From NCBI GenBank assembly GCA_042577605.1, contig JBHPDY010000002.1, positions 1-33,626 of the forward strand: a stretch of DNA of 33,626 nt, in the 5' to 3' direction. The DNA comes from Candidatus Margulisiibacteriota bacterium (GTDB lineage Bacteria > Margulisbacteria > Marinamargulisbacteria > JBHPDY01). A program made the translations under genes and the position numbers. Positions 1 to 30,046 of this stretch are shown here, piece by piece. The first letter of the stretch is position 1. Every line of letters starts with the position of its first letter. The notes beneath the pieces were generated by a model. It worked only from the letters and a program-made list of their open reading frames with translations. It was not told the DNA's origin and did not search any database.

Positions 1-983
1 GCGTATCTATTAATAATATTTTTCTTTGCCTGCGGTTGTCTATCTTTTTCATCCTGAACTTCCAAATATTTACAACTAAAGGCACTTAATGCTTTCTCTT
101 GCCAGCCAAACACCGTATACTCATTTCCATCATTTACAAGACCCATTTCCTTATAAAAAGCTTTTAATTCCTTTAATGTTTTGATTTTTTCATCCACTTC
201 CTTTTTTGCATGAGATAGTTTCTTTTTAGCCTCAATCATCACCAGATCGAATAAGTTTTTCAAACTTTTTATTTGCTTTTCAATTTTTTGATATTTTTCT
301 TGAATCACTTTAGCGTAATCTACATTATTATAAAAAAGCTTTAGCTTTTTTCCAGAAATTCTTACACTATTCTTTTGCCCGCCCTTATCGCTTTCCTTAA
401 TAAAACTCAATGCTTGATCAACAATTGTTATTCTCAGATTATTTTTCAACTCAATGCGCAAGATATTGTTTAAGCGAGCAGCAAAATAATCCTTATTAAC
501 ATCTCCATATTTAACCGTAAACTTCTTGTCTAGTTTTAAAAATTTCGCAAATTCTTTCTTCTGATTCACCATTTTTTCAATTGTTTTTAGAATCTCAAGC
601 TGCTTTTGAAGCCAAAACACTACAATCTTAAGGGCTTGATTAATAGTTTTGCTCTTCACTTTTTCATTAGCCTCTTTAGCCCTATAAATTATTATCTTTG
701 TTAGCTTGTTCGCCTCATTCAAAAGAGAGTCAGCATACGCTTCCATGAAAACAGTTTTGTTCCCAAAGGATTTTTTATATTCTAATACCTCTTTAGATAG
801 CGCTCTGAACACATATTTCTTTTTATTTAAAACAAGTGCTTCCTCGGGAAATTCAAAAGGCTCTTCTTTAACTTCATCCACTTTTTCCGGAAAAGCGGAC
901 ATATTCTCCAGCACCAGAACGCCTGGGGCCTCTTTAACCGCTATTATCTTTTTAAAAATTTCTTTAAACAATAATAAAACCAT
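1..983 (-). CDS. hypothetical Lys/Glu-rich (coiled-coil-like) protein; 3' end runs off the left edge of the window
   Basis: Not in the supplied ORF track. My reverse-complement translation from the ATG at 983-981 stays open for about 327 codons down to position 1 (MVLLLFKEIFKKIIAVKEAPGVLVLENMSAFPEKVDEVKEEPFEF...QAKKNIINRY). A purine-rich GGGTAAGAG lies just upstream of the ATG. The listed + ORF 706..1110 is its antisense shadow. No family motif recognised. Confidence 0.6.
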   Translation of the reverse strand, partial: MVLLLFKEIFKKIIAVKEAPGVLVLENMSAFPEKVDEVKEEPFEFPEEALVLNKKKYVFRALSKEVLEYKKSFGNKTVFMEAYADSLLNEANKLTKIIIYRAKEANEKVKSKTINQALKIVVFWLQKQLEILKTIEKMVNQKKEFAKFLKLDKKFTVKYGDVNKDYFAARLNNILRIELKNNLRITIVDQALSFIKESDKGGQKNSVRISGKKLKLFYNNVDYAKVIQEKYQKIEKQIKSLKNLFDLVMIEAKKKLSHAKKEVDEKIKTLKELKAFYKEMGLVNDGNEYTVFGWQEKALSAFSCKYLEVQDEKDRQPQAKKNIINRY

Positions 984-1120
984 CTCTTACCCTTTATTAT
1001 TAAAACACCTTACTTCATACACATATGTGCGCACGCGCGAAAAACAAAAACACATAAAATGTGTTATATGTATATCATGCAACAATCCCTTTATTAATTA
1101 TCGTAAATAATGCAAAAAAA

Positions 1121-1205: not shown

Positions 1206-3962
1206 ATGCAAAATATCAATATAAAAGAAACTGTAAATTTACCATTCACGGACTTCCCGCTCCGTGCCTCACTGGCGGTAAAAGAGCCGGAATTATTAAA
1301 TTACTGGCAAGAACATAATCTTTATGAACAGATTTTACTAAAACAGAAAGATTATTCCAAATCATATTTCCTACACGACGGCCCGCCTTATCCAAACGGT
1401 GACATCCATATGGGACATGCTCTTAATAAAGTTCTAAAAGACATTGTTGTCCGGTCAAAAGTCATGGCCGGCTATAAAAGCTCTTTTCTTCCGGGATGGG
1501 ATTGTCATGGACTGCCTATAGAGGTCCAGGTCATTAAAGAACTTAAAAAAAACGATCTGGAACACAAAAAACACGACATTGCCTGGTTCAGAGAAAAATG
1601 CAAAGACTTTTCTCTGAAATATGTGGAAACCCAAAAAAAAGAATTTAAACGCCTGGGCATAATCGGAGAATGGGATAATCCCTATCTGACTTTAAATAAA
1701 AATTATGAAGCCAAAGTCCTGGAACTATTCGGCAAAATGGCCCAAAACGGTCTGGTGCATAAAGGCCTTAAGCCGATCCACTGGTGTTCAACCTGCCAGA
1801 CAGCCCTGGCAGAAGCAGAAATCGAATACAATGACCACCGTTCCCCTTCGATCTATGTAGCTTTTAAAGTAACAGGCGCTTCAGCTAAATTAGCTGAAAT
1901 CATTAAAAACCTTGAGGCCAATATTATGGTCTGGACCACTACACCCTGGACCTTACCTGCTAATGTTGCCATTGCTGCCCATCCTGAATTCAACTACCTT
2001 GTGGCTAAGACCGATGACAAAGCTATTGTCTTTGTTGAAGACTTAAAAGAAAAAATTCAAAAAGAACTGGGACTCTCAGAACTTACTATTTTGGGAAGCC
2101 TCTCCGGAAAAAAACTCGCAGGCACAAAAACCGAGCACCCTTTTATTGAGCGGACATCAGAAATCATTAATGCTGTTTACGTTACAAAAGAAGACGGCAC
2201 AGGTTTTGTCCACATTGCCCCTGGACATGGACAAGAAGACTATCTGGTTGGTCTGGAATATGACCTGCCTATCATTATGCCGGTAGATGAGAAAGGCCGC
2301 TTTACAGAAGAAGTAGAATGGGAAGGGCTGAAAGTCTTTGATGCCAACAAACCCATCTGTGAAAAAATGAAAGAAAAAGGAACCCTTTGGCACCTCAATT
2401 TTGTTTCCCATGCTTATCCTCATTGCTGGCGCTGTAAAAAACCGGTTATCTTCCGGGCTACTGAACAATGGTTTATCTTTATGGACAAACCATTCCCTGA
2501 CAGCCAGGACCAGACCCTCCGTGAAAAATCACTGGCCGAAATAAAAAAAGTCAAATGGCACCCCAGCTGGGGAGAAAACCGTATTTACTCTATGATCGAG
2601 AACAGGCCGGACTGGTGTATTTCCAGACAACGTTACTGGGGTATTCCCATTCCTGTTTTCCACTGCAATAAATGCGACCATATTGAAATGACAGGAGAGT
2701 TTAACAAAGCAGTAGTCGAACTGGTAAAAAAAGAAGGCGCCTTAGCCTGGTTCTCCAAAGATGTTGATGATATTCTGCCTAAACACCTAACCTGCAGCAA
2801 ATGTAATTCAAGGGACTTTACCAAAGAAAAAGATATAATGGACGTCTGGTTTGAGTCAGGCGCCAGTTTCGGAGCAGCGCTGGATGACCATCCTGAACTG
2901 AACAGCCCTGCCAACCTCTATTTAGAGGGTTCTGACCAGCATCGCGGCTGGTTTCAGTCATCACTTTTAATAGGTACCGGAACCACAAACCAGGCCCCTT
3001 ACAAAGAAGTGCTTACTCATGGCTTTATAGTTGACGAACATGGCAAAAAAATGAGCAAATCAATCGGTAATGTCATTTCTCCCCAAAAAATAGTCCAGGA
3101 ACACGGAGCAGATACCCTGCGGTGGTGGATCGCTAACACAGATTTTAAGAACGATATCAACATATCTCAAAATGTTCTTAAGCAGGCCAGGGACTCCTTC
3201 ACAAAGGTAAGGAACACCATCCGTTTCTGCCTGGGAAACCTTAATGACTTTGATCCGCAAAAAGACCTGTTAGAATACCAAGACCTAAGCGAACTGGATA
3301 AATGGGCCTTGTCCCAGCTTCACAATTTAATTACAAAATGCTCAAATGCTTACGCATCATTTGAGCTTCACCTCCTGACCCATTCAGTACATGATTTCTG
3401 TGCAGTTACTTTAAGCTCCTTATATCTGGATATGATCAAAGACCGGCTCTATTGCGACTACAAAGAAAGCAAACAACGCCGTAGTTCACAAACGGTTCTC
3501 TATCTTTTGGTGGACGCTCTTATAAAGCTGATAGCGCCGATCCTTGTCTTCACCAGTGAAGATGTCTACAAGTTCTTTAACAAACCAGACAAGAAAACCT
3601 CTATCCACTTAGAAGACCTGCCAAAAGCAAAAGAAGAATGGCTGAGCATTGACGCTAAAAAATGGCAGCTACTCATTAACATAAAAGACCAATGCTATCA
3701 AAAACTGGAATCCCTGCGCAGCCAAAAGATCATAGGCAGTTTTCTGGAAGCCCAGGTTGACCTGGTCCTGGATCAAGAAATTGATTTTGAAGATTGGGAA
3801 TCACTCTTGATCATCAGCCAAGCCAATATTTCTACGGGTAAAGAGCTAAAAATTGAAGTTTCCAAATCCAAAGAAGAAAAATGCGATCGTTGTTGGAAAA
3901 GGCTGCCCTTAAAAAATGGTATTTGTACCCGTTGCCAAGAAGCAATTGCAAATTCAAATTAA
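1206..3962 (+). CDS. ileS: isoleucine--tRNA ligase (bacterial type 1)
   Basis: 918-aa ORF with the class I HIGH-type motif (PNGDIHMGHALN) and KMSKS (GKKMSKSIGN). WCISRQRYWG follows a CP1-sized insertion. C-terminal Cys cluster CDRCW...CTRCQ. AAGGA lies 5 nt upstream of the ATG. Confidence 0.97.
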   Translation: MQNINIKETVNLPFTDFPLRASLAVKEPELLNYWQEHNLYEQILLKQKDYSKSYFLHDGPPYPNGDIHMGHALNKVLKDIVVRSKVMAGYKSSFLPGWDCHGLPIEVQVIKELKKNDLEHKKHDIAWFREKCKDFSLKYVETQKKEFKRLGIIGEWDNPYLTLNKNYEAKVLELFGKMAQNGLVHKGLKPIHWCSTCQTALAEAEIEYNDHRSPSIYVAFKVTGASAKLAEIIKNLEANIMVWTTTPWTLPANVAIAAHPEFNYLVAKTDDKAIVFVEDLKEKIQKELGLSELTILGSLSGKKLAGTKTEHPFIERTSEIINAVYVTKEDGTGFVHIAPGHGQEDYLVGLEYDLPIIMPVDEKGRFTEEVEWEGLKVFDANKPICEKMKEKGTLWHLNFVSHAYPHCWRCKKPVIFRATEQWFIFMDKPFPDSQDQTLREKSLAEIKKVKWHPSWGENRIYSMIENRPDWCISRQRYWGIPIPVFHCNKCDHIEMTGEFNKAVVELVKKEGALAWFSKDVDDILPKHLTCSKCNSRDFTKEKDIMDVWFESGASFGAALDDHPELNSPANLYLEGSDQHRGWFQSSLLIGTGTTNQAPYKEVLTHGFIVDEHGKKMSKSIGNVISPQKIVQEHGADTLRWWIANTDFKNDINISQNVLKQARDSFTKVRNTIRFCLGNLNDFDPQKDLLEYQDLSELDKWALSQLHNLITKCSNAYASFELHLLTHSVHDFCAVTLSSLYLDMIKDRLYCDYKESKQRRSSQTVLYLLVDALIKLIAPILVFTSEDVYKFFNKPDKKTSIHLEDLPKAKEEWLSIDAKKWQLLINIKDQCYQKLESLRSQKIIGSFLEAQVDLVLDQEIDFEDWESLLIISQANISTGKELKIEVSKSKEEKCDRCWKRLPLKNGICTRCQEAIANSN

Positions 3963-3972
3963 GCTTTATCCA

Positions 3973-4803
3973 ATGAAATTCTGGAAAAAATGCAATTTTT
4001 GGCTGTTAATTATCATTATTTTTATTAGTGGCTTTTATACGGCTACCATGAGCAGGTTATACTTAGATTATTCTTATGAAAAGCGTCTTTACAAAACAAT
4101 TGTTAATAGAGTTCTTAACAACCAGATGTCCAATGAAAATAAAATACTTAAATTATTAGAATTAACTCATCAACTACTTGGCCCTCCTAGAAAAGGATTG
4201 TTAATACCTGAAACCATAGGATTAAAAGAAAAGCTTCTTTTTTCTGCTGATGAAGCTTTAATAGGTGGTTACGCATGTGGCATGCACGCTCAAGTCCTTG
4301 GAATGCTATTAACTACTGCGGGATTTGATTTTCGTTTTTTTTCTATGGAAAAAGAAGGGCGCCTTCATCATGTTGGGCAGGTCTTATATGCTGGCAAATA
4401 TATTGCTATAGATCCCCTTTTCAATCAGACTTTTATTAAAGTAAACGGAGATTATGCTACGGTTAAAGAAATAAATAAAAACTGGGATTACTTTAAAAAC
4501 CAAGTAGGAAATAAATTGTTCTTTAAAAGACATAAAGATTATGACACTGTTTTTTACCAAAAACACTACAATTTCAACCCCCCAAAAGAAAGAATAAGTT
4601 TATTCAGAATAATAACAAATGCTCTCCTTGGTAAAAATAAAGCAGAAAAATTAGCAGTAAAAAGAAAACTAAGCCGCTATTTCTATTGGCAAATTAATTT
4701 GACGTGCTATTATGCATTTATGGTCTTCTGCCTTATGATAAACTTTGTCTTATATTATCTTCTTATTAAGAGAATGAGACATAAACCACATACCACAAAT
4801 TAG
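3973..4803 (+). CDS. membrane-anchored transglutaminase-like (Cys-His-Asp) protein, function unknown
   Basis: The track ORF starts at 3916 inside ileS. The in-frame ATG at 3973 (MKFWKKCNFWLLIIIIFISGFY) gives an N-terminal TM helix and begins 11 nt after the ileS stop. The core GGYACGMHAQVLGMLL...RLHHVGQVLYAGKYIAIDPLF has the spacing of the transglutaminase-like Cys...His...Asp triad. A second hydrophobic helix sits at the C-terminus (YYAFMVFCLMINFVLYYLLI). Confidence 0.5.
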   Translation: MKFWKKCNFWLLIIIIFISGFYTATMSRLYLDYSYEKRLYKTIVNRVLNNQMSNENKILKLLELTHQLLGPPRKGLLIPETIGLKEKLLFSADEALIGGYACGMHAQVLGMLLTTAGFDFRFFSMEKEGRLHHVGQVLYAGKYIAIDPLFNQTFIKVNGDYATVKEINKNWDYFKNQVGNKLFFKRHKDYDTVFYQKHYNFNPPKERISLFRIITNALLGKNKAEKLAVKRKLSRYFYWQINLTCYYAFMVFCLMINFVLYYLLIKRMRHKPHTTN

Positions 4804-4970: not shown

Positions 4971-6846
<1,876 letters not shown>

Positions 6847-7707
6847 TTAGCCCGCCAGGGCTTCTACTCCGCTTACTATTTCGTTTATCTCTCTCGTAAT
6901 ATGCGCCTGCCTCGTTCTATTATAGACTAGCTGTAACTGGCCTATCATTTCCGCTGCATTATCTGTCGCAGCTTCCATGGCCATCATTCTTGCTGCTTCT
7001 TCTCCTGTATTGCTATCCAAAAGGTCTTTATATAACAGCATTACTAAGTAATGATGCAGATAATTGTATAATACACTTGGTTTACTTGGTTCATAAATAT
7101 AATCTGACAAGGGTTCTTCAGCTGTTTTTTCAAGCAAAATAGGCAGGTATTGCCTATGCACCAACTTACTGGTTAATGCAGATTGAAATTGATTAAAAAA
7201 AGCTTTTACAATGCCAATCTCACCGTTAACAAATCTCTCAAGAATCAAATCTATGGCATGTTCAACTTTATCAAAACCCAACTTATCCATAAAATAAGGG
7301 TAAGCTCCATATATCTCCCACTTTTTTCTTTTAAAAAAAGCACATGCTTTATTACCAAATAAATAAAGCTGTACATTCGTGCTCTTTTGGTCATTTAAAT
7401 AAGTCCATGCAGCTTTAAGTACACTGGTATTATACCCCCCGCACAAACCACGATCCCCGGTAATCACAATCACAACCTGCTTGGGCGAACCGTTCTTGCA
7501 GAAAAAGACCGGAAAAAAGTCTGGTTCTATCCGATTAGCCGTATCACTCAGCACTGCCTCTAATTCATCTACATATCCATCTACATTCTGGGATTTCTGC
7601 ACTGCCCTTTTAAATTTTGCCGCAGCTACCATTTTCATTGCCTGGGTCATCTTTCTGGTCTTAATAACAGAAGCAATACGCTGTTTTAATTCACGAATAT
7701 TAGACAT
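6847..7707 (-). CDS. atpG: F1 ATP synthase subunit gamma
   Basis: 286 aa lying between atpA and atpD. N-terminal IRELKQRIASVIKTRKMTQAMKMVAAAK and C-terminal NRTRQAHITREINEIVSG are the conserved gamma helices. Confidence 0.93.
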   Translation of the reverse strand: MSNIRELKQRIASVIKTRKMTQAMKMVAAAKFKRAVQKSQNVDGYVDELEAVLSDTANRIEPDFFPVFFCKNGSPKQVVIVITGDRGLCGGYNTSVLKAAWTYLNDQKSTNVQLYLFGNKACAFFKRKKWEIYGAYPYFMDKLGFDKVEHAIDLILERFVNGEIGIVKAFFNQFQSALTSKLVHRQYLPILLEKTAEEPLSDYIYEPSKPSVLYNYLHHYLVMLLYKDLLDSNTGEEAARMMAMEAATDNAAEMIGQLQLVYNRTRQAHITREINEIVSGVEALAG

Positions 7708-7709
7708 CT

Positions 7710-9224
7710 TTAATTGTTCTCAATAAAAATTCCTTGGCATTCTGTAATAGCAGCGGTCAACTTTTGTTTTATCCCATCATCCAATACTTTTTTACTCTCT
7801 ATTTCATCCAGAACTTCTGCAAACTGCATATTTAATATCAAGTTCAACTCCTGTTCAAACTGCCTGATACTATCTACAGGGATTTTATCCAAAAAACCGT
7901 TCACAGCCGCAAAAATAATTGATATCTGCAAAGCAATCCTCAGCGGTTTATATTGATCCTGCTTCAAGATCTCAAGCAACCTTTTCCCTCTATCCAATTG
8001 GGCAATGGTCGCCTTATCCAGATCTGAACCAAATTGTGAAAAAGCCTCAATCTCCCAATACTGGGACAAATCTATCCTCAAGCTGCCTGCTACTTGCTTT
8101 GTAGCCTTAATCTGGGCATTACCGCCTACCCGGGAAACAGATATCCCGGCATTTACAGCAGGTTTTATCCCAGCATTAAAAAGATCTGATTCCAGATAAA
8201 TCTGACCGTCTGTTATGGAAATTACATTAGTTGGTATATAAGCAGATACATCACCCGCCTGGGTCTCAATTATCGGTAACGCGGTCAGAGACCCACCTCC
8301 CTTTTCGTCAGAGTACTTTAAAGAACGTTCCAACAGCCTGGAATGAAGGTAAAAAATATCTCCGGGAAAAGCTTCTCTACCTGGAGGTCTTTTAAGCAAA
8401 AGGGACAACTGCCTATAAGCAACCGCATGTTTTGACAGGTCGTCATAGACAATCAGGACATGTTTTCCCTGATCCAGGAATTCTTCGCCCATGGCACAAC
8501 CGGCATAAGGAGCAATATATTGCAAAGTAGCTGACTCCGATGCCGAAGCGGTCACCACAATCGTATACTCCATAGCTCCAAAATCCTTCAAGGTTTGAAC
8601 TACCCTGGAAACCGTAGATTTTTTCTGTCCGATAGCAACATAAATACAAATAACATCCTGGTCCCGCTGATTTATAATTGTATCTATCGCAATAGCTGTT
8701 TTACCTGTCTTGCGGTCCCCGATTATTAATTCTCTCTGCCCGCGTCCTATAGGGATCATAGAGTCTAAGCACTTTAATCCTGTCTGCAAAGGCTCCTTAA
8801 CCGGTTGACGGTCACATACCCCAGGTGCAATACGCTCAATAGGCCGGCGTTTATCCGAATCTATCGGGCCTGAGCCATCAACAGGATTCCCCAAAGGATC
8901 AACTACCCTGCCCAAAAGATGTTCCCCTACCGGAACATCCAAAATACGCCCGGTCCGCTCTACCTGATCCCCTTCCTTGATTGCCTTGCCGTTCCCTAAA
9001 ATAACACAGCCGACATTTTCTTCTTCCAAATTAAATACCAATCCATAAACATTGCCCGGAAAAAGGATCATTTCTCCGGCCATAGCATTTTCCAATCCAT
9101 AGATTCTGGCGATACCGTCTCCCACCTGAATGATATAACCTATCTCTTTAACATTTACTGAAATATCATAATCTTCTATTTGCTTCTGAATAATTGAAGT
9201 TATTTCTTCCGGCTTAATCTTCAT
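7710..9224 (-). CDS. atpA: F1 ATP synthase subunit alpha
   Basis: 504 aa with Walker [16 protein letters not shown]. Typical alpha sequence ([22 protein letters not shown]). Confidence 0.97.
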
Positions 9225-9258: not shown

Positions 9259-9807
9259 TCATCTGCCAGCAGGCTGGGAAACCATATGTTTTTTCAGTTC
9301 CAAGAGTGAATTAGCAACTGAAGCATCATATAAGATGTGGTCAACCTGAACTTTTAATCCCCCTATTAGGCTCTCATCAATAATAAACTCCGGTTGAATT
9401 ACTTGCTGAATTCTATTACTGAATTCCTTGATCAATATATCCCGGATGGCCTGGTTTAAATCTACCGCTGAAATAAACTTCACCTTTATAGCCCCCCTCT
9501 CCCTTAATATCCGCTCTGTAATAACCTCTCTGAAAAATATTGCTAAACCCAATCTGTTCTTCCTAGCAACCAAAAATAAAAAACTCTGTGTTTGTTTATG
9601 AATGGTATATTTATTTAAAAAAATTTCCAGCAGTTCCCGCTGTTGTTTCTTATTTGTCATATGGCTCTTTAAATAACCAAATACTCGATCTTTTGCCAAA
9701 TCACCCAAAACTTTCTCCAGGGCAGTAAGTTCCTTTTTTAGTTTTTCCTTTGGAAAACTAGCACAGAATGCATTTATATATCTTTTAGCTAAAATAAGGT
9801 CTTTCAT
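9259..9807 (-). CDS. atpH: F1 ATP synthase subunit delta (OSCP)
   Basis: 182 aa in the canonical position between atpF and atpA, with a 4-nt ATGA overlap with atpF. OSCP-like N-terminus (LAKRYINAF) and C-terminal GGLKVQVDHILYDASV. Confidence 0.8.
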   Translation of the reverse strand: MKDLILAKRYINAFCASFPKEKLKKELTALEKVLGDLAKDRVFGYLKSHMTNKKQQRELLEIFLNKYTIHKQTQSFLFLVARKNRLGLAIFFREVITERILRERGAIKVKFISAVDLNQAIRDILIKEFSNRIQQVIQPEFIIDESLIGGLKVQVDHILYDASVANSLLELKKHMVSQPAGR

Positions 9808-10289
9808 TTATCCTGTATAGTCCCTAAATAATCTTTCACTAAATCCTCCTGCGTTTTTTTATCTAGCTGCTTTCTAATTACTTTCTCAGCCAAATTAACT
9901 GTGATATCAGCCAAATAGCCTTTCAACTCCACTTTCGCACTGTTAAAATCTCTTTCAATTTCTTTTTTGGCGTTTTCTAATACCCGTTGGGCTTCGTTCC
10001 TGGTTTGATTTAACATTGCCTGGCGTTCTTTTTTGGTATCGCTTTCTGCTTTAGCAAGGATATCCCTTGCGTCCTGCCGTGCCTGTTTCAAATCACCTTT
10101 CTTGGTCTCCAATAACTCTTCCGTGCTTTTTTTATTAGCTTCTGCCTGGGCAATATTTTTTTTGATCCCCTCTTCCCTTTTGTCCATAAATTTTAAAAGA
10201 GGCCTGATCAAAAACCTGTTAAGCAGCCATAAAAGGATCAAAAAATTTACCATCTGCATTAGAATTTCATATATATTTGTACGAATCAC
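9804..10289 (-). CDS. atpF: Fo ATP synthase subunit b
   Basis: 161 aa with a single N-terminal TM helix (MQMVNFLILLWLLNRFLIRPL), then a long charged helix. Canonical operon position. Confidence 0.8.
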   Translation of the reverse strand: MIRTNIYEILMQMVNFLILLWLLNRFLIRPLLKFMDKREEGIKKNIAQAEANKKSTEELLETKKGDLKQARQDARDILAKAESDTKKERQAMLNQTRNEAQRVLENAKKEIERDFNSAKVELKGYLADITVNLAEKVIRKQLDKKTQEDLVKDYLGTIQDK

Positions 10290-10328
10290 CTTTTTCTCCG
10301 TTAATTAATTAATTTTCATAAAACAGAA

Positions 10329-10374
10329 GTCAGGAGTCAGGAGTTTAGTCTGAACTCTGAATTCTGAATCTGAA
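10329..10374. repeat. short tandem repeats in the atpE-atpF intercistronic spacer
   Basis: GTCAGGAGTCAGGAGT (10329-10344) followed by TCTGAACTCTGAATTCTGAATCTGAA (10349-10374). The two blocks are partly complementary to each other and could form a bulged hairpin in the mRNA. Confidence 0.6.
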
Positions 10375-10377
10375 ATA

Positions 10378-10629
10378 TTAGACTACAAATATTAATATCA
10401 AGGCAATTACCAGTGAATATATGCCTGTGGTCTCTGAAACAGCCTGCCCTATAAGCATAGTCCTCGTGATAAGGTTAACCTCATCTGGCCTCTTACCTAA
10501 AGATTCGCATGCTTTACCAGCGGCAAATCCTTCACCAATCCCAGGGCCTATAGCTCCAAATCCCATCGCAATCCCTGCAGCTAAAAGAGCAAAAGCCTTT
10601 ATAAACTCCGTACCTGTTATTCCGTCCAT
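10378..10629 (-). CDS. atpE: Fo ATP synthase subunit c (single hairpin), Na+-type signature
   Basis: 83 aa: [26 protein letters not shown]...[26 protein letters not shown]. Strong GGAGGT RBS upstream of the ATG. Confidence 0.93.
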
Positions 10630-10673: not shown

Positions 10674-11384
10674 CTAAACAACAAAAATCAAAATCAAAGC
10701 AATTACTGCCGAATATATGCTGGTGGTCTCTGTCACAGCCTGGCCAATAAGCATCGTCCTGGTGAGAATAGTCAACTCCCTCGGATTACGACCGACCGCT
10801 AAATTAGCAAACCTGGCCACAGTACCGCTGCCCATACCAGGCCCAATGGCTCCGAATCCCATCGCAATACCCGCACCAAGAGTAGAAAAAATCGCATAAA
10901 TCCCTTGTCCCGGATTAGAAATGATTAAAATCAAAGAAATAGTTAAAGCAAAAATACAAGCTGTCTGTGAAACCGCCTGTCCGATTAACATATGAAAAAT
11001 CAGAATATCCGCATTCCCCGGCTGGCGTCCGACCCCTTCACAAGCAGCACTCCCGGGCAAACCTGCCCCGGCCCCGGAACCGATTGTGCCAAGTCCCATT
11101 GCTAAACCTGCGGCAATGAAACAAAATCCCTTCTCAAATCCAAAATTACCTGCTTTTTGAAAAACTAAAATCAGAGCTACGACCAGAGCAAATATCGAAG
11201 CTGTCTCTGCAACTGCCTGGCCAATAAGCATCAACCGTAAAAGTTTGTTCTTAGCGCGAGGCTGCCTGCCAAGAGCTTCAATTGCCTTGGAAGCAATAAG
11301 CCCTTCACCCACAGCAGAGCCGATAGCTCCTAAGCCCATAGCTAATCCCGCCCCTAATATTGCGCTTATTCTAACAAATTCCAT
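10674..11384 (-). CDS. triplicated (three-hairpin, six-TM) F-type ATP synthase c subunit; the middle hairpin lacks the ion-binding Glu
   Basis: One uninterrupted ORF carrying three c-type hairpins. Each has a Gly-rich helix 1, an R(Q/N)P loop and MLIGQAV-x-(E/Q)-T in helix 2: AVAETASIF, AVSQTACIF, AVTETTSIY. The track starts at TTG 11393. I prefer the ATG at 11384 (MEFVRISAIL). Confidence 0.85.
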   Translation of the reverse strand: MEFVRISAILGAGLAMGLGAIGSAVGEGLIASKAIEALGRQPRAKNKLLRLMLIGQAVAETASIFALVVALILVFQKAGNFGFEKGFCFIAAGLAMGLGTIGSGAGAGLPGSAACEGVGRQPGNADILIFHMLIGQAVSQTACIFALTISLILIISNPGQGIYAIFSTLGAGIAMGFGAIGPGMGSGTVARFANLAVGRNPRELTILTRTMLIGQAVTETTSIYSAVIALILIFVV

Positions 11385-11406
11385 AGTATTCAACTTTTCT
11401 TCATTC

Positions 11407-11470
11407 TTTTAAAGCGCTTCGCACTTTAAAAAACTCAGGAAGATTTTTATTTAAGGGCTGCCGTCCTTAA
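11407..11470 (-). promoter_or_regulatory. two stem-loops in the atpB to c-triple intercistronic spacer
   Basis: TTTTAAAGCGC-TTC-GCACTTTAAAA (11407-11431, one mismatch) and TTAAGGGC-TGCC-GTCCTTAA (11451-11470). The function (mRNA processing or translation tuning) is inferred only. Confidence 0.35.
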
Positions 11471-11503
11471 AAATCCCCAATAAAACAAATTATAATTCTT
11501 TCC

Positions 11504-12358
11504 TCATTTTGCAGTAGCAATATAAGTTATGGCCAGCATAGTAAAAACAAAGGCTTGAATAATACCGGAAAACAAGCCGAAAAAAGCAAATAAACCCACT
11601 GGCAGCAAAAAATATCGTAAAAGCTCTGAAACAATTAAAATAATAATTCCCCCACCAAAAATATTACCAAAAAGACGGAAAGAATGAGACACTACATTAC
11701 TAAGCTGGGAAATAATGTTCAAATAGAAAAAAGGATTCAAAAAGAAAAAATATATCCAAGGCGGCTTGGAAGGTAAGGGCTCCATATAGCCTTTAAAATA
11801 TTCTACGATACCATTACACCGAACAGCATTGCTGTGGGCCACTAAAAATACAATTATAGCCACGGCAAAATTCGTACCTAAATGTCTGGTGGGAGAATTA
11901 ATTGCCGGGATTTTAAACAGAAAGTAATACCAGCTTTGAGGATCAGGAACTACAAAAACGTTTGTAACGCTTTCTGCTACAACCTCAACTGTCCCAGGTA
12001 CAATTAATTTATGTAATAAGGCTATTATCACGCCCAGGAACTCACATAAATTCGGTACGATCCCTATCCAGTTTGATAGAAGCACAAAAAGAAAAATTGT
12101 TATTATCAAAGGAGAGAACTTTTTACCTTCTTTTTCGCCCAGGGTGCTTACGGTAATATCGTTAACAAAATATAGGATCAGCTCAAAAAAACCCTGAAGT
12201 TTTCCGGGTACTGAAGATAATTTCCTTGTTGATAAGAAACCAAATAGAACCAGAAGAGAAGCCACCAGGAAGGTCATATAGAACATCTCAAGATTTACTA
12301 TGATTTCAAGCCCAAATAACTGAAAAGATTTTAAAGCTACAACGCCGATATCTTCCAA
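11504..12358 (-). CDS. atpB: Fo ATP synthase subunit a
   Basis: 284 aa, polytopic. Carries the conserved stator Arg context SHSFRLFGNIFGG. Canonical position upstream of the c genes. Confidence 0.9.
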   Translation of the reverse strand: MEDIGVVALKSFQLFGLEIIVNLEMFYMTFLVASLLVLFGFLSTRKLSSVPGKLQGFFELILYFVNDITVSTLGEKEGKKFSPLIITIFLFVLLSNWIGIVPNLCEFLGVIIALLHKLIVPGTVEVVAESVTNVFVVPDPQSWYYFLFKIPAINSPTRHLGTNFAVAIIVFLVAHSNAVRCNGIVEYFKGYMEPLPSKPPWIYFFFLNPFFYLNIISQLSNVVSHSFRLFGNIFGGGIIILIVSELLRYFLLPVGLFAFFGLFSGIIQAFVFTMLAITYIATAK

Positions 12359-12362
12359 TGTT

Positions 12363-12755
12363 CTATGCCCTCTTTTTATTTTTCTTTATGCCACGTAACA
12401 AAGAAATAGCAATAAAACCTGCTTGAAAAACAAATAAGAATATCAGAAGCACAGTCATATTAAAAGAGGATTCCAGCTTTAATGCAAGTATAACTGGCGC
12501 CGCATATAAAATTATCCTGATAAGAAAATTCACAAACACAGGCTTCAGGCTTCTGCCGCTCAATACGCTTTCAGAAACCCTCTGCATATTAACAGCTACA
12601 AAATAACTGAAAACTGCTCCTAATATACTTGACCACACAAAATCCATTCTTCCGATCAATATAGAGAAAATATTAAATACTATTAAAAATAGAAAAATAT
12701 ATTTAATTAAAACACTATTCAACAATAATATGTTCCTACTTTTTAGTATTTTCAT
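12363..12755 (-). CDS. AtpI-like small membrane protein (ATP synthase protein I family, by position and topology)
   Basis: 130 aa with about 4 hydrophobic segments, immediately upstream of atpB. There are no diagnostic motifs, so the call rests on size, hydrophobicity and operon context. Confidence 0.5.
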   Translation of the reverse strand: MKILKSRNILLLNSVLIKYIFLFLIVFNIFSILIGRMDFVWSSILGAVFSYFVAVNMQRVSESVLSGRSLKPVFVNFLIRIILYAAPVILALKLESSFNMTVLLIFLFVFQAGFIAISLLRGIKKNKKRA

Positions 12756-12993
12756 TGTTTAACATCAGCATTTTCTTCAAAGAAAAATAAATATAATAAA
12801 AACCGCAAATAATCCCGGCAATTATCATAAAAATAAGAAAAACACCCTTTAATTGAAATTTTTTCTCAACAAACAGGCCTATGAAAAAAAAGAATAAAAT
12901 AGAACCTGCCATCACTAAGCCAATTCTAGTGACTAACATGAAATAATCCGCTAATTCCTTTTTAAACTTTTGCTGGTCCGGTTGTTTGTTCAT
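12736..12993 (-). CDS. AtpZ/ATPase_gene1-like small membrane protein
   Basis: 85 aa with two TM helices (LVMAGSILFFFFIGLFVEKKF / VFLIFMIIAGIICGFYYIYF). It is the first gene of the atp operon and overlaps the next ORF by 20 nt. Call from context and topology only. Confidence 0.45.
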   Translation of the reverse strand: MNKQPDQQKFKKELADYFMLVTRIGLVMAGSILFFFFIGLFVEKKFQLKGVFLIFMIIAGIICGFYYIYFSLKKMLMLNNENTKK

Positions 12994-16565: not shown

Positions 16566-16757
16566 ACTAATTTAACCTGAGTTTTGGATAGGGCACACAA
16601 AGAAATGTTCATATTAAACCTAATTTAGCTAGATAGTAGTGAAATATCTTAATAATATTTGTGCTATTTTTGAGATTTTGGAGCGTGCTAGCTAGTTAAA
16701 TTAGGTTTAATATGAACATTTAGACTGTGGCTTATCCAAAACTCAGGTTAGTTTATT
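16561..16757. repeat. about 197-nt long inverted repeat spanning both stop codons of two convergent genes (MITE-like element or giant bidirectional hairpin)
   Basis: Perfect pairings: 16561-16570 with 16748-16757 (10 bp), 16575-16590 with 16732-16747 (16 bp), and 16603-16627 with 16696-16720 (25 bp). A partly matched 12-nt internal segment separates the 16-bp and 25-bp stems. The central loop is about 55 nt. Confidence 0.85.
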
Positions 16758-17161
16758 GAATCAATTTTTTTTTTACACTTAACCATTTCAGCAATATCCT
16801 GGAATGATGTGGTTCTGATTATGTCCTTATTAAATGATGTCCTTAATTTAACAATCTTTTTCTTTTTAACTAGTTTTTGCATATTCACAAATGCCGGTTG
16901 TATTAAAACAGGTGCTTTCATAAGCCTTTTTTTCTTCCCTTTAACCAATCCTCCCGCTATTTCTTGAAAGGACTTTTTATGATTCTTTTTACTTTTGCTC
17001 GAAACATTTTGTTTGTTTTTTGCAGTATAATAATTATTTTGTCCATTTTCCTTTGTAACCGATTGAAACTGAGATGCCTTCTCATACCAAAAGCATCCGT
17101 CTTCTGCATTTACAGGTATAGCTAGCACATAAAATATTAAAACTATTAATAATCGTTTCAT
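16748..17161 (-). CDS. hypothetical secreted, very basic protein
   Basis: 137 aa with a signal-peptide-like N-terminus MKRLLIVLIFYVLAIPVNA-ED. Lys-rich (KKNHKK, KGKKKR, VKKKKIVK). AT-rich. No family motif. Confidence 0.5.
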   Translation of the reverse strand: MKRLLIVLIFYVLAIPVNAEDGCFWYEKASQFQSVTKENGQNNYYTAKNKQNVSSKSKKNHKKSFQEIAGGLVKGKKKRLMKAPVLIQPAFVNMQKLVKKKKIVKLRTSFNKDIIRTTSFQDIAEMVKCKKKIDSIN

Positions 17162-26011: not shown

Positions 26012-26482
26012 ATGAATATTAATAAACCTGTTATACTAACCTCTGAGAACGAAAAACGTTTCTATAACTTTATCGTTTTTGAACCTGCTTCTTCCAGGAT
26101 CAGCGAACAGGATATTCTGTTTAAGGGAGCCCAGGTCAAGCATACATTTGAAATAATCCAGAAAAAACTCTTAGTTTCTACTGATCTGAAAACACAAATA
26201 ATTCAGAACAGGCTGGCAAAAATTAATCAAATGCTAGAATTGCTTTCTAATCATGAAAACATTTTGATATCCAAATTCTTTGACAGGGTATGGAGGCGTT
26301 ACTCCCATATCAGCAACTTAGGTGAATACCTGCTGGACTTCACCACTTATATGACGTGCTTCCCGGAATACCATAACAAAAAAATGGGCCTCCTTGCCAA
26401 ACGCATTGACGCTTCCAGTTATGATGACTTTCAGGCCGCTGCTCAAGAACAACAAGATGACTTTGCTACAGTTGAAGAATAA
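26012..26482 (+). CDS. hypothetical protein with an acidic C-terminus
   Basis: 156-aa ORF. No motif recognised. Ends in QEQQDDFATVEE. Coding status rests on ORF length and position only. Confidence 0.45.
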   Translation: MNINKPVILTSENEKRFYNFIVFEPASSRISEQDILFKGAQVKHTFEIIQKKLLVSTDLKTQIIQNRLAKINQMLELLSNHENILISKFFDRVWRRYSHISNLGEYLLDFTTYMTCFPEYHNKKMGLLAKRIDASSYDDFQAAAQEQQDDFATVEE

Positions 26483-27643: not shown

Positions 27644-30046
27644 ATGGTAAAAAATATTCTGCGGAAAATATTCAAAGGGATTCTTTCTTTAGACAAAACC
27701 TATCCCAGGTTTATCAGGATTGCTGACCATCTCTTTACCATACCCTGCTATACAGACAATAAAAGATTTGAACAGCTCTATCCTCAGATAATTGTTCAGG
27801 GCCTGGCAAATGCCAAAGTAATCCCCTATAATCCTAACCGGATCTGGCCCTTCTGGGTTTATCAGCAGCTTAATCCTGAAAGCCAAAGTTATAGTTCATC
27901 CGGTTTCCCTTTTGCTTTAATTAATACTACTCACCGGAACTGGTCTTCAATCAGTCTACCTTCATCTGATACTAATGCTATCATTGATCCCAGGGGCCTT
28001 ATTACACCTCTGGTTAGCGGTTGGTCAATGGATAACTGGATTAGGGTTTCCGGCAAGCTCTACTCTCCTGCAAAACTAGCTGATATCGAACAACAATACC
28101 TTTTAGAAAACAAGCCGATCATTATTACCAAATGGAAAGCAGAGCAGCTTAATATATGCTCGGAAACCTTTTTGAGCTCCTTTGAACAAAAAAGTATTGT
28201 CTTTAACCAACTGAGAGTTACCAATACCTCTGATGAGACTAAAAAATTCTCCCTATACTTTGCTGTCCGGCCTTATAACCCCGAAGGGCTTGCCCCCATT
28301 GACGAGATAGTATATACAACTTCCCAGGCTTTAATAATCGATGGCCGCCTTTCTGTGGTCTTTGACCAGAAACCTGACAACGTCATCTGCCTCAGGCATA
28401 AAGACGGTGATGTTTCAGAAGAACATGTTAAGAACTGGGAAATGATCCCGCATGCTAAGTGCAAAGACCACCTGGCATCTGCCTATGCTGAATACCGGCT
28501 TGTACTTCAACCAAATGAAGAAAAGGCTCTTACCTGTAAATTATTTAGTAATAATTCTTCCAGGCTGGTAAAAATGTTCCAGAAATCACTGCCTATTAGC
28601 CAGAAGGTCCAATTGCGCTCCAAAATTACTATGCTGCAAAAATTAAATTACCATACCGAAAGAATAAATATCAGAAGATACTGGCAAAATAACGCTTCCA
28701 GACTGGCTAGAATATCCATTCCCAATAAGAAACTGGAAACATGCTTTAACCAGAATATAGCCCATCTGCAAAATTTCGTAGGAAAAAAAGACATTTTTTC
28801 AGGCAGTTTCACAAATAAAAAACCATGGGTAACAGACTCTGTTCTATCCATATTAGCGCTTAACCGGATAGGCGCATTTGACCTGGCAAAAAAAAGCGTT
28901 GAGTCTCTACTGCGCAAAAAAAATCCATTCCGTATCTCATCTTCTGTGGACAAAGCAAAAAATCTGGATATTCTAGGTCAATTATTGTTTATCATCTATG
29001 ATTATTACAGTTTCACTAAAGATAAGGATTTCTTAGTACAGCATTTTTCCAATATCAAAGTCCTGACAACCAAGATAAAAAAATCTTTGTATAGTACCCG
29101 CTCCCAGAAAAAAGTAATGGGCTTAATGAACAAAACCTATTCCTGCGATAACCTGGGTTTACTGGACAATTATATGTGGGACAATTTCTGGACACTGGCC
29201 GGTGTAAAGGTCGCTAAAAAATTAGCCAAAATATTAGACAAAGAAGACCTTTTAACCCAACTCTCTGCCATGGAAACAAAGATTACAAATTATGTTGAAA
29301 AATACATATCACGCATTTCAGCTACTAAAAGTTCCACCCCTCATATCCCGGTTTCACCAAACAGGCTGATGGATTCCGCGCTCATAACTGCTCTGATCGG
29401 TATCCATCCCCTAAACATCCTGGATCCTCACTCTCATATCATCTCTAATACCCTATCCCAGCTAGAAAAACATTTCCTCTCTGATAATATCTATTTTAAT
29501 AATCTAAACCACACTGGTTTTAATATTGCTCACAACTGCCTATTAGCCCAAATCTATCTATATAGGCAAGATCCAAAACTATTCACCATTATAAGCTGGC
29601 TAATCAAAAACATCAGTGGTACAGGGGCCTGGCCCGAAGCTATTCATCCAAAAAGCTTAGGGGGCAGCGCAGGGGATGGGCATTATAGCACTGCTACGGC
29701 AGAATTTATTATGCTGATCCGGAATCTCCTCCTGAAAGAAGAAGAAAAAGTCCTGCATATTACGCCTATCCTGCCCAGAGAATGGCTTAAAAAGGACACT
29801 CCCTTGCAAGTAACAAATCTACCCACTCATTTTGGGATGGTCAGCTATGATTTATGCGCGGACAAAAACAATGTTTATGTGGAATTCGATAATAATTTTT
29901 CAACTCCTCCGGCAAGCATTAAAATTTCCCTGCCTCATTCCATTAAATACATTGTTGAAGACGGCAAGCAACAGGACGTTTATAAAACATCGGCCAGCAT
30001 TAGTCCACAAACCAAAAAATTAAAGATCGTACTCTTACCTGAATGA
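27644..30046 (+). CDS. large uncharacterised protein with a C-terminal (alpha/alpha)6 six-hairpin glycosidase-like region (GH15/GH63/GDE-like), tentative
   Basis: 800 aa. The N-terminal half looks beta-rich. The C-terminal half has patterns reminiscent of six-hairpin glycosidases (PWVTDSVLSILALNRIGAFDLAKKSVESL; NYMWDNFWTLAGVKVAKKLAKIL; GAWPEAIHPKSLGGSAGDGHYSTATAEFIML). No catalytic residues can be assigned by eye. Confidence 0.35.
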   Translation: MVKNILRKIFKGILSLDKTYPRFIRIADHLFTIPCYTDNKRFEQLYPQIIVQGLANAKVIPYNPNRIWPFWVYQQLNPESQSYSSSGFPFALINTTHRNWSSISLPSSDTNAIIDPRGLITPLVSGWSMDNWIRVSGKLYSPAKLADIEQQYLLENKPIIITKWKAEQLNICSETFLSSFEQKSIVFNQLRVTNTSDETKKFSLYFAVRPYNPEGLAPIDEIVYTTSQALIIDGRLSVVFDQKPDNVICLRHKDGDVSEEHVKNWEMIPHAKCKDHLASAYAEYRLVLQPNEEKALTCKLFSNNSSRLVKMFQKSLPISQKVQLRSKITMLQKLNYHTERINIRRYWQNNASRLARISIPNKKLETCFNQNIAHLQNFVGKKDIFSGSFTNKKPWVTDSVLSILALNRIGAFDLAKKSVESLLRKKNPFRISSSVDKAKNLDILGQLLFIIYDYYSFTKDKDFLVQHFSNIKVLTTKIKKSLYSTRSQKKVMGLMNKTYSCDNLGLLDNYMWDNFWTLAGVKVAKKLAKILDKEDLLTQLSAMETKITNYVEKYISRISATKSSTPHIPVSPNRLMDSALITALIGIHPLNILDPHSHIISNTLSQLEKHFLSDNIYFNNLNHTGFNIAHNCLLAQIYLYRQDPKLFTIISWLIKNISGTGAWPEAIHPKSLGGSAGDGHYSTATAEFIMLIRNLLLKEEEKVLHITPILPREWLKKDTPLQVTNLPTHFGMVSYDLCADKNNVYVEFDNNFSTPPASIKISLPHSIKYIVEDGKQQDVYKTSASISPQTKKLKIVLLPE

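Follow-up and report, generated by a model that had tools for sequence, protein, structure and literature searches.

A three-hairpin F-type c subunit with a carboxylate-less middle hairpin, encoded beside a Na+-type c monomer in a Margulisbacteria lineage, and its multi-hairpin relatives in other phyla

The ion/ATP ratio of a rotary ATP synthase sets both the yield of ATP for each ion and the minimum ion-motive force that still allows synthesis. To our knowledge, the enzyme of Acetobacterium woodii is so far the only F-type ATP synthase shown to lower this ratio by a carboxylate-less rotor position (one blank, n = 3.3). Its hybrid (F/V) c-ring (PDB 4BEM) combines c1, a subunit of two hairpins with one Na+ site, with c2/c3 monomers, nine c2/3 to one c1, giving n=3.3 (PMC9171764; PMC5662883). 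The same two-hairpin arrangement is described for c1/c2 of Clostridium aceticum (PMC7911925), and archaeal proteolipids contain 1, 2, 3 or 13 hairpins (PMC9171764). Here we analyse a 33,626-nt stretch of a Candidatus Margulisiibacteriota genome (assembly GCA_042577605.1, contig JBHPDY010000002.1, positions 1 to 33,626; hereafter the window). Its F-type ATP synthase operon encodes a c subunit of three fused hairpins, which we call triple c, next to an ordinary c monomer. We consider it probable, from sequence, that triple c is a selectively maintained rotor subunit that forms a minor part of a hybrid Na+ c-ring and lowers its ion/ATP ratio.

The triple-c gene lies at 10674-11384 on the minus strand (coordinates are positions in the window, and all genes of the operon are on this strand) and encodes 236 residues plus a stop codon. 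The mechanically listed open reading frame (ORF), 10674..11393, is uninterrupted and would give 239 residues from a TTG at 11393; we place the start at the ATG at 11384 because homologues begin at the matching residue (MEFV, MDFV, VEFV or LEFA). Pfam ATP-synt_C (PF00137) matches the product in three separate stretches (E=1.2e-42, 144.4 bits against a cutoff of 24), and no gap is needed to align its three hairpins with the monomer. At positions 32/65/66/67/70 (I. tartaricus numbering) the residues are E/E/T/T/Y in the monomer, E/E/T/A/F in hairpin 1 (H1), A/Q/T/A/F in H2 and S/E/T/T/Y in H3. The carboxylate pattern of triple c is thus E-Q-E. H1 (residues 1-76, 11157-11384) carries E27 at position 32 and E60 at position 65 (codon at 11205-11207), the residues of a two-carboxylate Na+ site. 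In H2 (residues 83-156, 10917-11138) A107 occupies position 32 and Gln140 (codon CAG, 10965-10967) replaces the carboxylate, which makes this hairpin a blank rotor position. H3 (residues 161-236, 10677-10904) has S186 at position 32 and the carboxylate Glu219 (10728-10730).

AlphaFold2, run on a 10-sequence alignment, predicts six helices in three hairpins, with connectors of 8 and 6 residues (predicted local distance difference test score 87.4, predicted template modelling score 0.83). The first-pass annotation of this DNA had reported an uninterrupted 236-residue ORF between atpB and an 83-residue c gene, on which the ORF list and the Pfam neighbours agree. Its three consecutive c hairpins are borne out by the hidden Markov model (HMM) scan, with three ATP-synt_C stretches in one polypeptide, and by the six predicted helices. 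The motifs it listed (GRQPRA, GRQPGN, GRNPRE, AVAETASIF, AVSQTACIF and AVTETTSIY) are all present, as are the Gln for the essential Glu (Q140) and the Ala in helix 1 (A107), both in hairpin 2. The three-hairpin observation is confirmed in every sequence detail apart from a figure for DNA identity, discussed below.

The operon is a complete F-type operon running from 12993 to 4971 in the order atpZ-I-B-c3-c-F-H-A-G-D-C; the subunit order is canonical and delta is present. This order is unlike that given for N-ATPases (PMC11738941). The N-ATPase and V/A-ATPase readings were both rejected on operon content and sequence scores. Among PDB sequences, triple c matches A. woodii c1 best (4bem_J, 5.8e-26); A. 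woodii c2 and the c subunits of F. nucleatum and I. tartaricus come next. F-type c subunits score from 1e-26 to 1e-6, and V-type proteins only about 1e-5. Since the best PDB matches are F-type c subunits, the earlier view that the protein derives from an F-type c subunit, and not from capture of a V/A proteolipid, stands. The best fold match is again 4bem_J (E=1.2e-7, root-mean-square deviation 1.8 A over 158 columns), and no solved chain among the fold matches spans three hairpins.

Two defining gene-level features of the A. woodii hybrid rotor are also found here: a multi-hairpin c gene beside a one-hairpin c gene in an F-type operon (in the relatives as well) and a Glu-to-Gln replacement in one hairpin. 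In both systems the multi-hairpin gene lies directly upstream of the monomer gene(s), and the Na+ motif is present in the monomer. The first two hairpins of the fused subunit have E and then Q, Phe70 in hairpin 1 lies by the dead site, and the last hairpin ends in T-T-Y; indeed, c1 reads Q/E/T/S/F and then Q/Q/T/T/Y, following the same rules as triple c. The differences are as clear. Whereas c1 has two hairpins and one carboxylate (E-Q), triple c has three hairpins and two carboxylates (E-Q-E), and its third hairpin holds a carboxylate in an incomplete Na+ environment. Position 32 is Gln in c1 but Glu, the two-carboxylate type, in the window system, and A. woodii is the system whose ring composition (9:1) is known. 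Triple c is probably not an orthologue of A. woodii atpE1. In a neighbour-joining tree (with low bootstrap values) the hairpins of A. woodii c1 fall beside its own c2 and the c subunits of I. tartaricus and F. nucleatum, and a one-residue deletion in helix 1 (AM-IAG versus AMGFGA) is common to the A. woodii, Ilyobacter and Fusobacterium c subunits and absent throughout the present family. Triple c and A. woodii c1 are therefore probably of parallel origin.

Other rotors offer more partial parallels. The proteolipid of the Methanocaldococcus jannaschii A1Ao enzyme was reportedly described by Ruppert and colleagues in 1999 as triplicated, with six helices and two carboxylates. By this description it shares with triple c the three fused hairpins, the two carboxylates and the rationale of a lower ion/ATP ratio. 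It is, however, an archaeal A-type, K-type proteolipid that forms a homomeric ring and has no monomer gene beside it, whereas the window protein is F-type by sequence and operon; furthermore, the carboxylate-less hairpin is the first in M. jannaschii (Q-E-E) and the middle one in triple c. The V-type 16-kDa proteolipid and Enterococcus hirae NtpK likewise have a duplicated hairpin with one site lost, and a site made from helix 2 and helices 1 and 2 of the next hairpin. Their fold matches reach a template modelling score of ~0.8 over two hairpins, but sequence identity is just ~20-25%, and they belong to V/A-type operons and to homomeric or V-specific rings of pumps. Identity as a V/A-type proteolipid (K/c) was rejected, given the F-type operon and V-type scores of ~1e-5. 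The window monomer, finally, has the same E32/E65/[ST]66/T67/Y70 motif as the F. nucleatum c11 ring (PDB 3ZK1; PMC3692424), and H1 is likened to it through this motif; F. nucleatum itself has single-hairpin subunits only, in a homomeric ring.

Triple c is conserved. A protein search gave ten further cluster representatives of 230-236 residues with 66-82% identity to it, one of them from Candidatus Marinamargulisbacteria SCGC AAA071-K20. In an alignment of nine of the ten (P0114 was left out), E27, E60, Q140, E219, T220, T221, Y224 and the Gly-rich helix-1 motifs are invariant; apart from a single-residue gap in the H1-H2 linker and two short ends, the alignment is ungapped. Position 32 of H3 is D, S or V among the homologues, and H2 provides A or S at position 67 and F at position 70. 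The relatives share the operon, and in the closest contig the likeness extends to the flanks, which hold the same methyltransferase, M16 peptidase, RNase HII and fabF genes; the IleRS of this contig is 71% identical to that of the window. Among named proteins, those labelled Candidatus Margulisiibacteriota come nearest to the window IleRS, at 58-62%, and the window is therefore chromosomal DNA of a Margulisbacteria lineage. Two database entries look mis-binned or mislabelled: L008 (CAXPTH010000025.1), labelled 'Alteromonas sp.', carries a Margulisbacteria-type operon (66% identity), and P0279, an IleRS 61% identical to that of the window, is labelled 'Thermoproteota archaeon'.

The architecture extends well beyond this clade. 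A scan of one genome per GTDB species gave 324 relatives, and the best 80, together with six earlier loci, made up 86 loci that were examined with an HMM-based hairpin parser. All 86 have a c gene with 2, 3, 4, 5 or 6 hairpins, which is directly followed in 85 loci by a monomer with E(or Q)32/E65/[ST]66/T67/Y70; the remaining locus, L015, ends inside its multi-hairpin gene. Record titles place the loci in at least ten phyla: Margulisiibacteriota (Marinamargulisbacteria, Termititenax), Cloacimonadota, Planctomycetota (Brocadiaceae, Phycisphaerae), Hydrogenedentota, Verrucomicrobiota, Latescibacterota, Nitrospirales, Desulfobacterota, Spirochaetota, Bacillota and Anaerolineaceae. The protein search also gave hundreds of longer proteins, mostly from Desulfobacterales such as Desulfosarcina ovata (locus L003, complete genome AP021879) and Desulfatitalea: those of ~323 residues have four hairpins with the patterns EQQE, EQEE and EQQQ, and those of ~404 residues have five, with EQQQQ and EQQQE. 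The Fo gene order in four such loci is atpZ (absent in L006)-I-B-c(4x or 5x)-c(1x)-b-b'. Among 50%-identity representatives, 80 clusters matched at E<=1e-30, and three hairpins were found in 46 of the best 149 representatives, ten of these being E-Q-E. The rarity implied by the first-pass annotation is thus not supported, given the 86 loci out of 86 with a c gene of 2-6 hairpins and the 80 clusters at 50% identity. Public databases call these proteins plain 'ATP synthase F0 subunit C'.

Several of the proteins found differ from triple c. The most extreme family members seen are subunits of six hairpins and 483-489 residues in four loci from Deltaproteobacteria metagenome-assembled genomes (L025, L033, L082 and L083, at ~5240-7430 in locus coordinates). 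Their pattern is EQQQQQ, one carboxylate per twelve helices, and a canonical Na+ monomer comes next. A separate class of four hairpins, found in ~34 representative clusters of ~315-321 residues, has E-Q-E-D at position 65 and ~30% identity to triple c. Cloacimonadota loci (L022, L029, L037-L040 and others, 5986-6738) encode a three-hairpin E-Q-E subunit with Ile at position 32 of H3; in most of them (L029, L037-L040 and others) H2 has Asp67, possibly a relocated second carboxylate for the H3 site, whereas L022 has Ser. Within the Margulisiibacteriota, hairpin and carboxylate numbers vary, with EEE in L010, EQQ in L011 and L012, and two hairpins, E-G, in L060; in the neighbour-joining tree the two L060 hairpins fall in with H1 and H2 of the window clade, a pattern that loss of the third hairpin would give. 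There are also single polypeptides in which nearly all hairpins have carboxylates: P0128 (968 residues), P0254 (1042), P0157 (524) and P0241 (447), with at least 11, 11, 7 and 5 c hairpins, respectively. P0128 and P0254 look like whole- or half-ring fusions and recall the 13-hairpin Methanopyrus proteolipid.

The residues around the carboxylates suggest how these subunits are used. In the F. nucleatum and I. tartaricus rings, one subunit supplies residues 32 and 65 for Na+ binding and its neighbour supplies Val63 O and Ser66; a water molecule is held by Thr67, and Tyr70 forms a hydrogen bond with Glu65 (PMC3692424). The ProAD rule for multi-hairpin subunits is that residues 66, 67 and 70 belong to the preceding hairpin (PMC11738941 supplement). 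We tested covariation on 92 distinct residue architectures. Tyr70 is never found before a carboxylate-less site (0/184) and stands before 27 of 62 carboxylate sites (Fisher p=4e-19). The reverse pairing, with the following hairpin as partner, fails, Tyr70 then falling at 89/151 carboxylate-less and 25/95 carboxylate sites. In the last hairpin Tyr70 is present in 89, [TS]67 in 88 and [ST]66 in 90 of the 92 architectures; E65 is found in the first hairpin of 82, and E or D at position 65 in the second hairpin of only four. The covariation fits sites formed between neighbouring hairpins and, together with the conserved face of the last hairpin, argues that the fused subunits are built so that their last hairpin completes the Na+ site on the next subunit. 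For triple c, T61/A62/F65 in helix 2 of H1 would face the dead H2 site, and T220/T221/Y224 in helix 2 of H3 would complete the site of the next subunit. Taken as [Q/E]32 ... E65-[S/T]66-[S/T/Q]67-x-x-Y70, with residues 66, 67 and 70 from the preceding hairpin, the Na+ motif is complete in the monomer, and in H1 if H3 or a monomer precedes; it is absent in H2 (A32/Q65) and incomplete in H3 (S32/E65, with T66/A67/F70 from H2).

The two c genes also differ in their translation signals. In the window, the monomer gene has a GGAGGT ribosome-binding site at good spacing with a calculated anti-Shine-Dalgarno duplex of -11.5 kcal/mol, against -1.0 for the purine run before triple c, whichever candidate start is taken. 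This asymmetry had been pointed out in the first-pass annotation, and it is conserved family-wide. Across the 86 loci, monomer genes average -9.4 kcal/mol and multi-hairpin genes -6.6, and the monomer site is the stronger one in 63/86 (Wilcoxon p=7e-10; these loci are not phylogenetically independent, many being Cloacimonadales, and a script picked their start codons). ATG is the start codon of the monomer in 85/86 loci, whereas multi-hairpin genes begin with ATG in 54, GTG in 20 and TTG in 12. Weaker translation signals of this kind would agree with a minor, sub-stoichiometric fused subunit and, like the complementary interfaces, would lend indirect support to co-assembly of both c types in one ring.

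The fusion appears to be old. The first-pass annotation had put the DNA identity of H3 and the monomer at about three-quarters, which is right for helix 2 (69/87, 79%; third codon positions 15/29) and wrong for the whole hairpin (149/234, 63.7%; third codon positions 35/78). From this likeness it had proposed a local duplication of an F-type c gene. At the protein level, H3 is 63.2% identical to its own monomer, a value equal to the maximum against monomers of other phyla (mean against foreign monomers 58.7%), and synonymous H3/monomer positions are near saturation in a genome of 38% G+C. Recent local duplication of, or gene conversion with, the adjacent monomer was rejected for this reason, H3 being no closer to its own monomer than to those of other phyla; these values, and the grouping of hairpins by position, speak against the local-duplication proposal.

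Compared with hairpins from other phyla, H1 is closest to first hairpins (mean identity 50.9%, against 45.7% to middle and 43.6% to last ones), H2 to middle hairpins (46.1%, against 38.4% and 40.0%) and H3 to last hairpins (50.3%, against 42.0% and 42.4%). Foreign monomers are about as close to H1 (51.1%) as first hairpins are, and closer to H3 (58.7%) than last hairpins are; monomers thus seem to be a separate, central, slowly evolving class. In a neighbour-joining tree of 104 hairpins, those of like position (first, middle, last, monomer) fall together regardless of phylum, but with ~75 columns its bootstrap values are low (the 'first' clade recovered within <=4 taxa in 65/200 replicates), so that positional orthology is only suggestive. 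Together, the grouping by position across phyla and the distance between H3 and its own monomer indicate that the fusion is old and shared and was not made in this genome.

These features suggest the following model. Triple c would be translated at a low level and would insert, probably in one or a few copies, into a ring made mainly of the strongly expressed 83-residue monomer, much as one c1 joins nine c2/3 in A. woodii. Ion sites would lie between neighbours, with residues 32 and 65 coming from hairpin n and residues 63, 66, 67 and 70 from helix 2 of hairpin n-1. H1 and the preceding subunit would then form a complete two-carboxylate Na+ site. H2 (Ala32/Gln65) would be blank and pass subunit a without an ion. 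The H3 carboxylate, in a degraded site (Ser32, with Ala67/Phe70 from H2), would probably still translocate an ion, with less selectivity for Na+, and the T-T-Y face of H3 would complete the site of the next subunit. Each copy would thus take one ion from each turn; in a ring of 11 hairpins, taken for illustration, 10 instead of 11 ions would pass, or 3.3 instead of 3.7 ions/ATP. Marinamargulisbacteria are reported to encode Nqr, a Na+ pump, and to be capable of respiring aerobically (bioRxiv 10.1101/328856); the presence of Nqr supports Na+ coupling.

Several points weigh against this model. What it says of ring composition, copy number and ion specificity is deduced from genes. The complementary interfaces would accept either a monomer or another triple c as the next subunit, so that rings of triple c only, with 9, 12 or 15 hairpins, would be feasible in both geometry and energy. 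The H3 site lacks three of the five Na+ motif residues, which makes its function uncertain, and a capacity for aerobic respiration fits poorly with a rationale based on life at the thermodynamic limit. The shared ancestry and scripted starts of the loci in the ribosome-binding-site comparison, and the low bootstrap values of the hairpin tree, count on the same side.

The first alternative is a second kind of rotor. Three to five copies of triple c could form a homo-oligomeric ring of 9-15 hairpins with 6-10 sites that replaces the monomer ring under some conditions, so that one operon would supply two gear ratios. H1 (E32/E65) and the T-T-Y face of H3 complement each other as well as either does the monomer, and the 119-nt structured spacer after atpB (11385-11503) could allow separate regulation. 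Known F-type rings include the range of 9-15 hairpins. We nevertheless regard this arrangement as unlikely. The triple-c and monomer genes are only about 44-45 nt apart in the same operon, and no terminator-like T-run was seen between them. Homomeric rings of EQQQQ or EQQQQQ subunits would have 2-3 sites and use at most 1 ion/ATP, too few for ATP synthesis at physiological ion-motive force; as these members nonetheless keep the gene pair, mixed rings can be argued for the family as a whole. Furthermore, the weaker translation signals of multi-hairpin genes fit a minor component, and the demonstrated case, A. woodii, is a mixed ring.

A fused subunit could also serve to nucleate, stabilise or size the ring, the Gln blank being a tolerated by-product. 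A covalent arc of three hairpins is a natural seed for ring assembly, and AtpI- and AtpZ-like assembly genes accompany the gene pair. Deletion of c1 in A. woodii is said, from work by Brandt et al. in FEBS J in 2016, to give an unstable, poorly coupled enzyme. However, the Gln65 of H2 is invariant in the clade, 88 of the 92 architectures lack E/D in the second hairpin, and the flanking residues co-vary with the blank (Tyr70 in 0/184), which together argue for selection on the ion-site pattern itself. A pure scaffold therefore seems improbable to us, although a scaffold role overlaps with the stoichiometric effect and is compatible with a lower ratio. Finally, an artefact or decaying gene (assembly collapse, a frameshift fusion of tandem c genes, or a relic), for which the single assembly and the very weak triple-c ribosome-binding site might speak, is hardly credible: an assembler cannot collapse hairpins merely 44-53% identical to one another, ten homologues from independent assemblies keep the same uninterrupted frame with conserved linkers (these two facts exclude collapse and frameshift in practice), the architecture recurs in 86 loci of many phyla, the AlphaFold2 model is confident and the functional residues are invariant.

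The other genes of the operon are as follows. An atpZ-like gene (PF09527, ATPase_gene1; Pfam E=4.9e-10) at 12736-12993 is followed by an atpI-like gene of 130 residues at 12363-12755, whose ATP-synt_I match (E=4.5e-4) is below the curated cutoff; an ATP-synt_I match stands at the same place in relatives. Subunit a (atpB, 11504-12358, 284 residues; Pfam ATP-synt_A E=2.5e-44) has the stator arginine R228 in the motif SFRLFGN. It is of the same length in close relatives, against 224 residues in the Desulfobacterales loci L003-L006. The c monomer (10378-10629, 83 residues; ATP-synt_C) carries the full two-carboxylate Na+ motif as E33/E66/T67/T68/Y71. Downstream lie atpF (subunit b, 161 residues, 9804-10289) and atpH (delta/OSCP, 182 residues, 9259-9807), both identified by Pfam, and then atpA (7710-9224), atpG (6847-7707), atpD (5389-6801) and atpC (4971-5399).

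Two spacers on the minus strand deserve mention. The one between atpB and triple c has two predicted stem-loops (minimum free energy -23.8 kcal/mol), one of them UUUUAAAGUGC-GAA-GCGCUUUAAAA, with no T-run after it and no Shine-Dalgarno match. The relatives L001 and L007 have 9-10 nt at this place. Within the window the stem-loop is unique, and Rfam gave no match to it or to any other part of the window. The 88-nt spacer between the monomer gene and atpF (10290-10377) contains four tandem TTCAGA repeats and then two of CTCCTGA, which can form an imperfect hairpin (-17.7 kcal/mol). Elsewhere in the window, five ORFs have no Pfam match at E<=0.001: 27644-30046 (plus strand, 800 residues), 3916-4803 (plus, 295), 16748-17161 (minus, 137), 26012-26482 (plus, 156) and 706-1110 (plus, 134).

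Hybrid F-type rotors in which a hairpin has lost its carboxylate are already known. For the three-hairpin E-Q-E subunit and its relatives of 4-6 hairpins we found no description, nor for any F-type c of three or more hairpins in the full-text literature, with the 2015 review of hybrid-rotor distribution (Brandt & Muller) outside the reach of that search. ProAD speaks of c/K subunits with 'two or more hairpin domains' and illustrates only c subunits of 1 and 2 hairpins (PMC11738941). A 2026 paper sums up Brandt & Muller 2015 only as 'multiple atpE copies' in Rnf-dependent anaerobes.

For the organism of the window the predicted effect of the gene alone is modest, one blank per copy, and the family-wide pattern is of more interest. 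At least ten bacterial phyla encode, beside a canonical Na+ monomer, a fused subunit that may have as many as five blanks, and the carriers include sulfate reducers, anammox Planctomycetota and Cloacimonadota, which are environmentally important. Tentatively, and with somewhat more doubt than confidence, we suggest that these proteins may form an ancient, unrecognised 'gearbox' family independent of A. woodii c1. Its members would have 2-6 fused hairpins with 1-5 blanks (EQ, EQE, EQQ, EQQE, EQEE, EQQQ, EQQQE, EQQQQ and EQQQQQ), each paired with a conserved two-carboxylate Na+ monomer, and more blanks would mean a lower ion/ATP ratio, in graded steps from ~3.3 to ~2 at unchanged ring size. Should the rings prove hybrid, models of energy conservation in these organisms, which now assume 3.3-4 ions/ATP, would have to be revised, and the family would offer a natural series for finding how long a run of blanks a rotary motor can bear.

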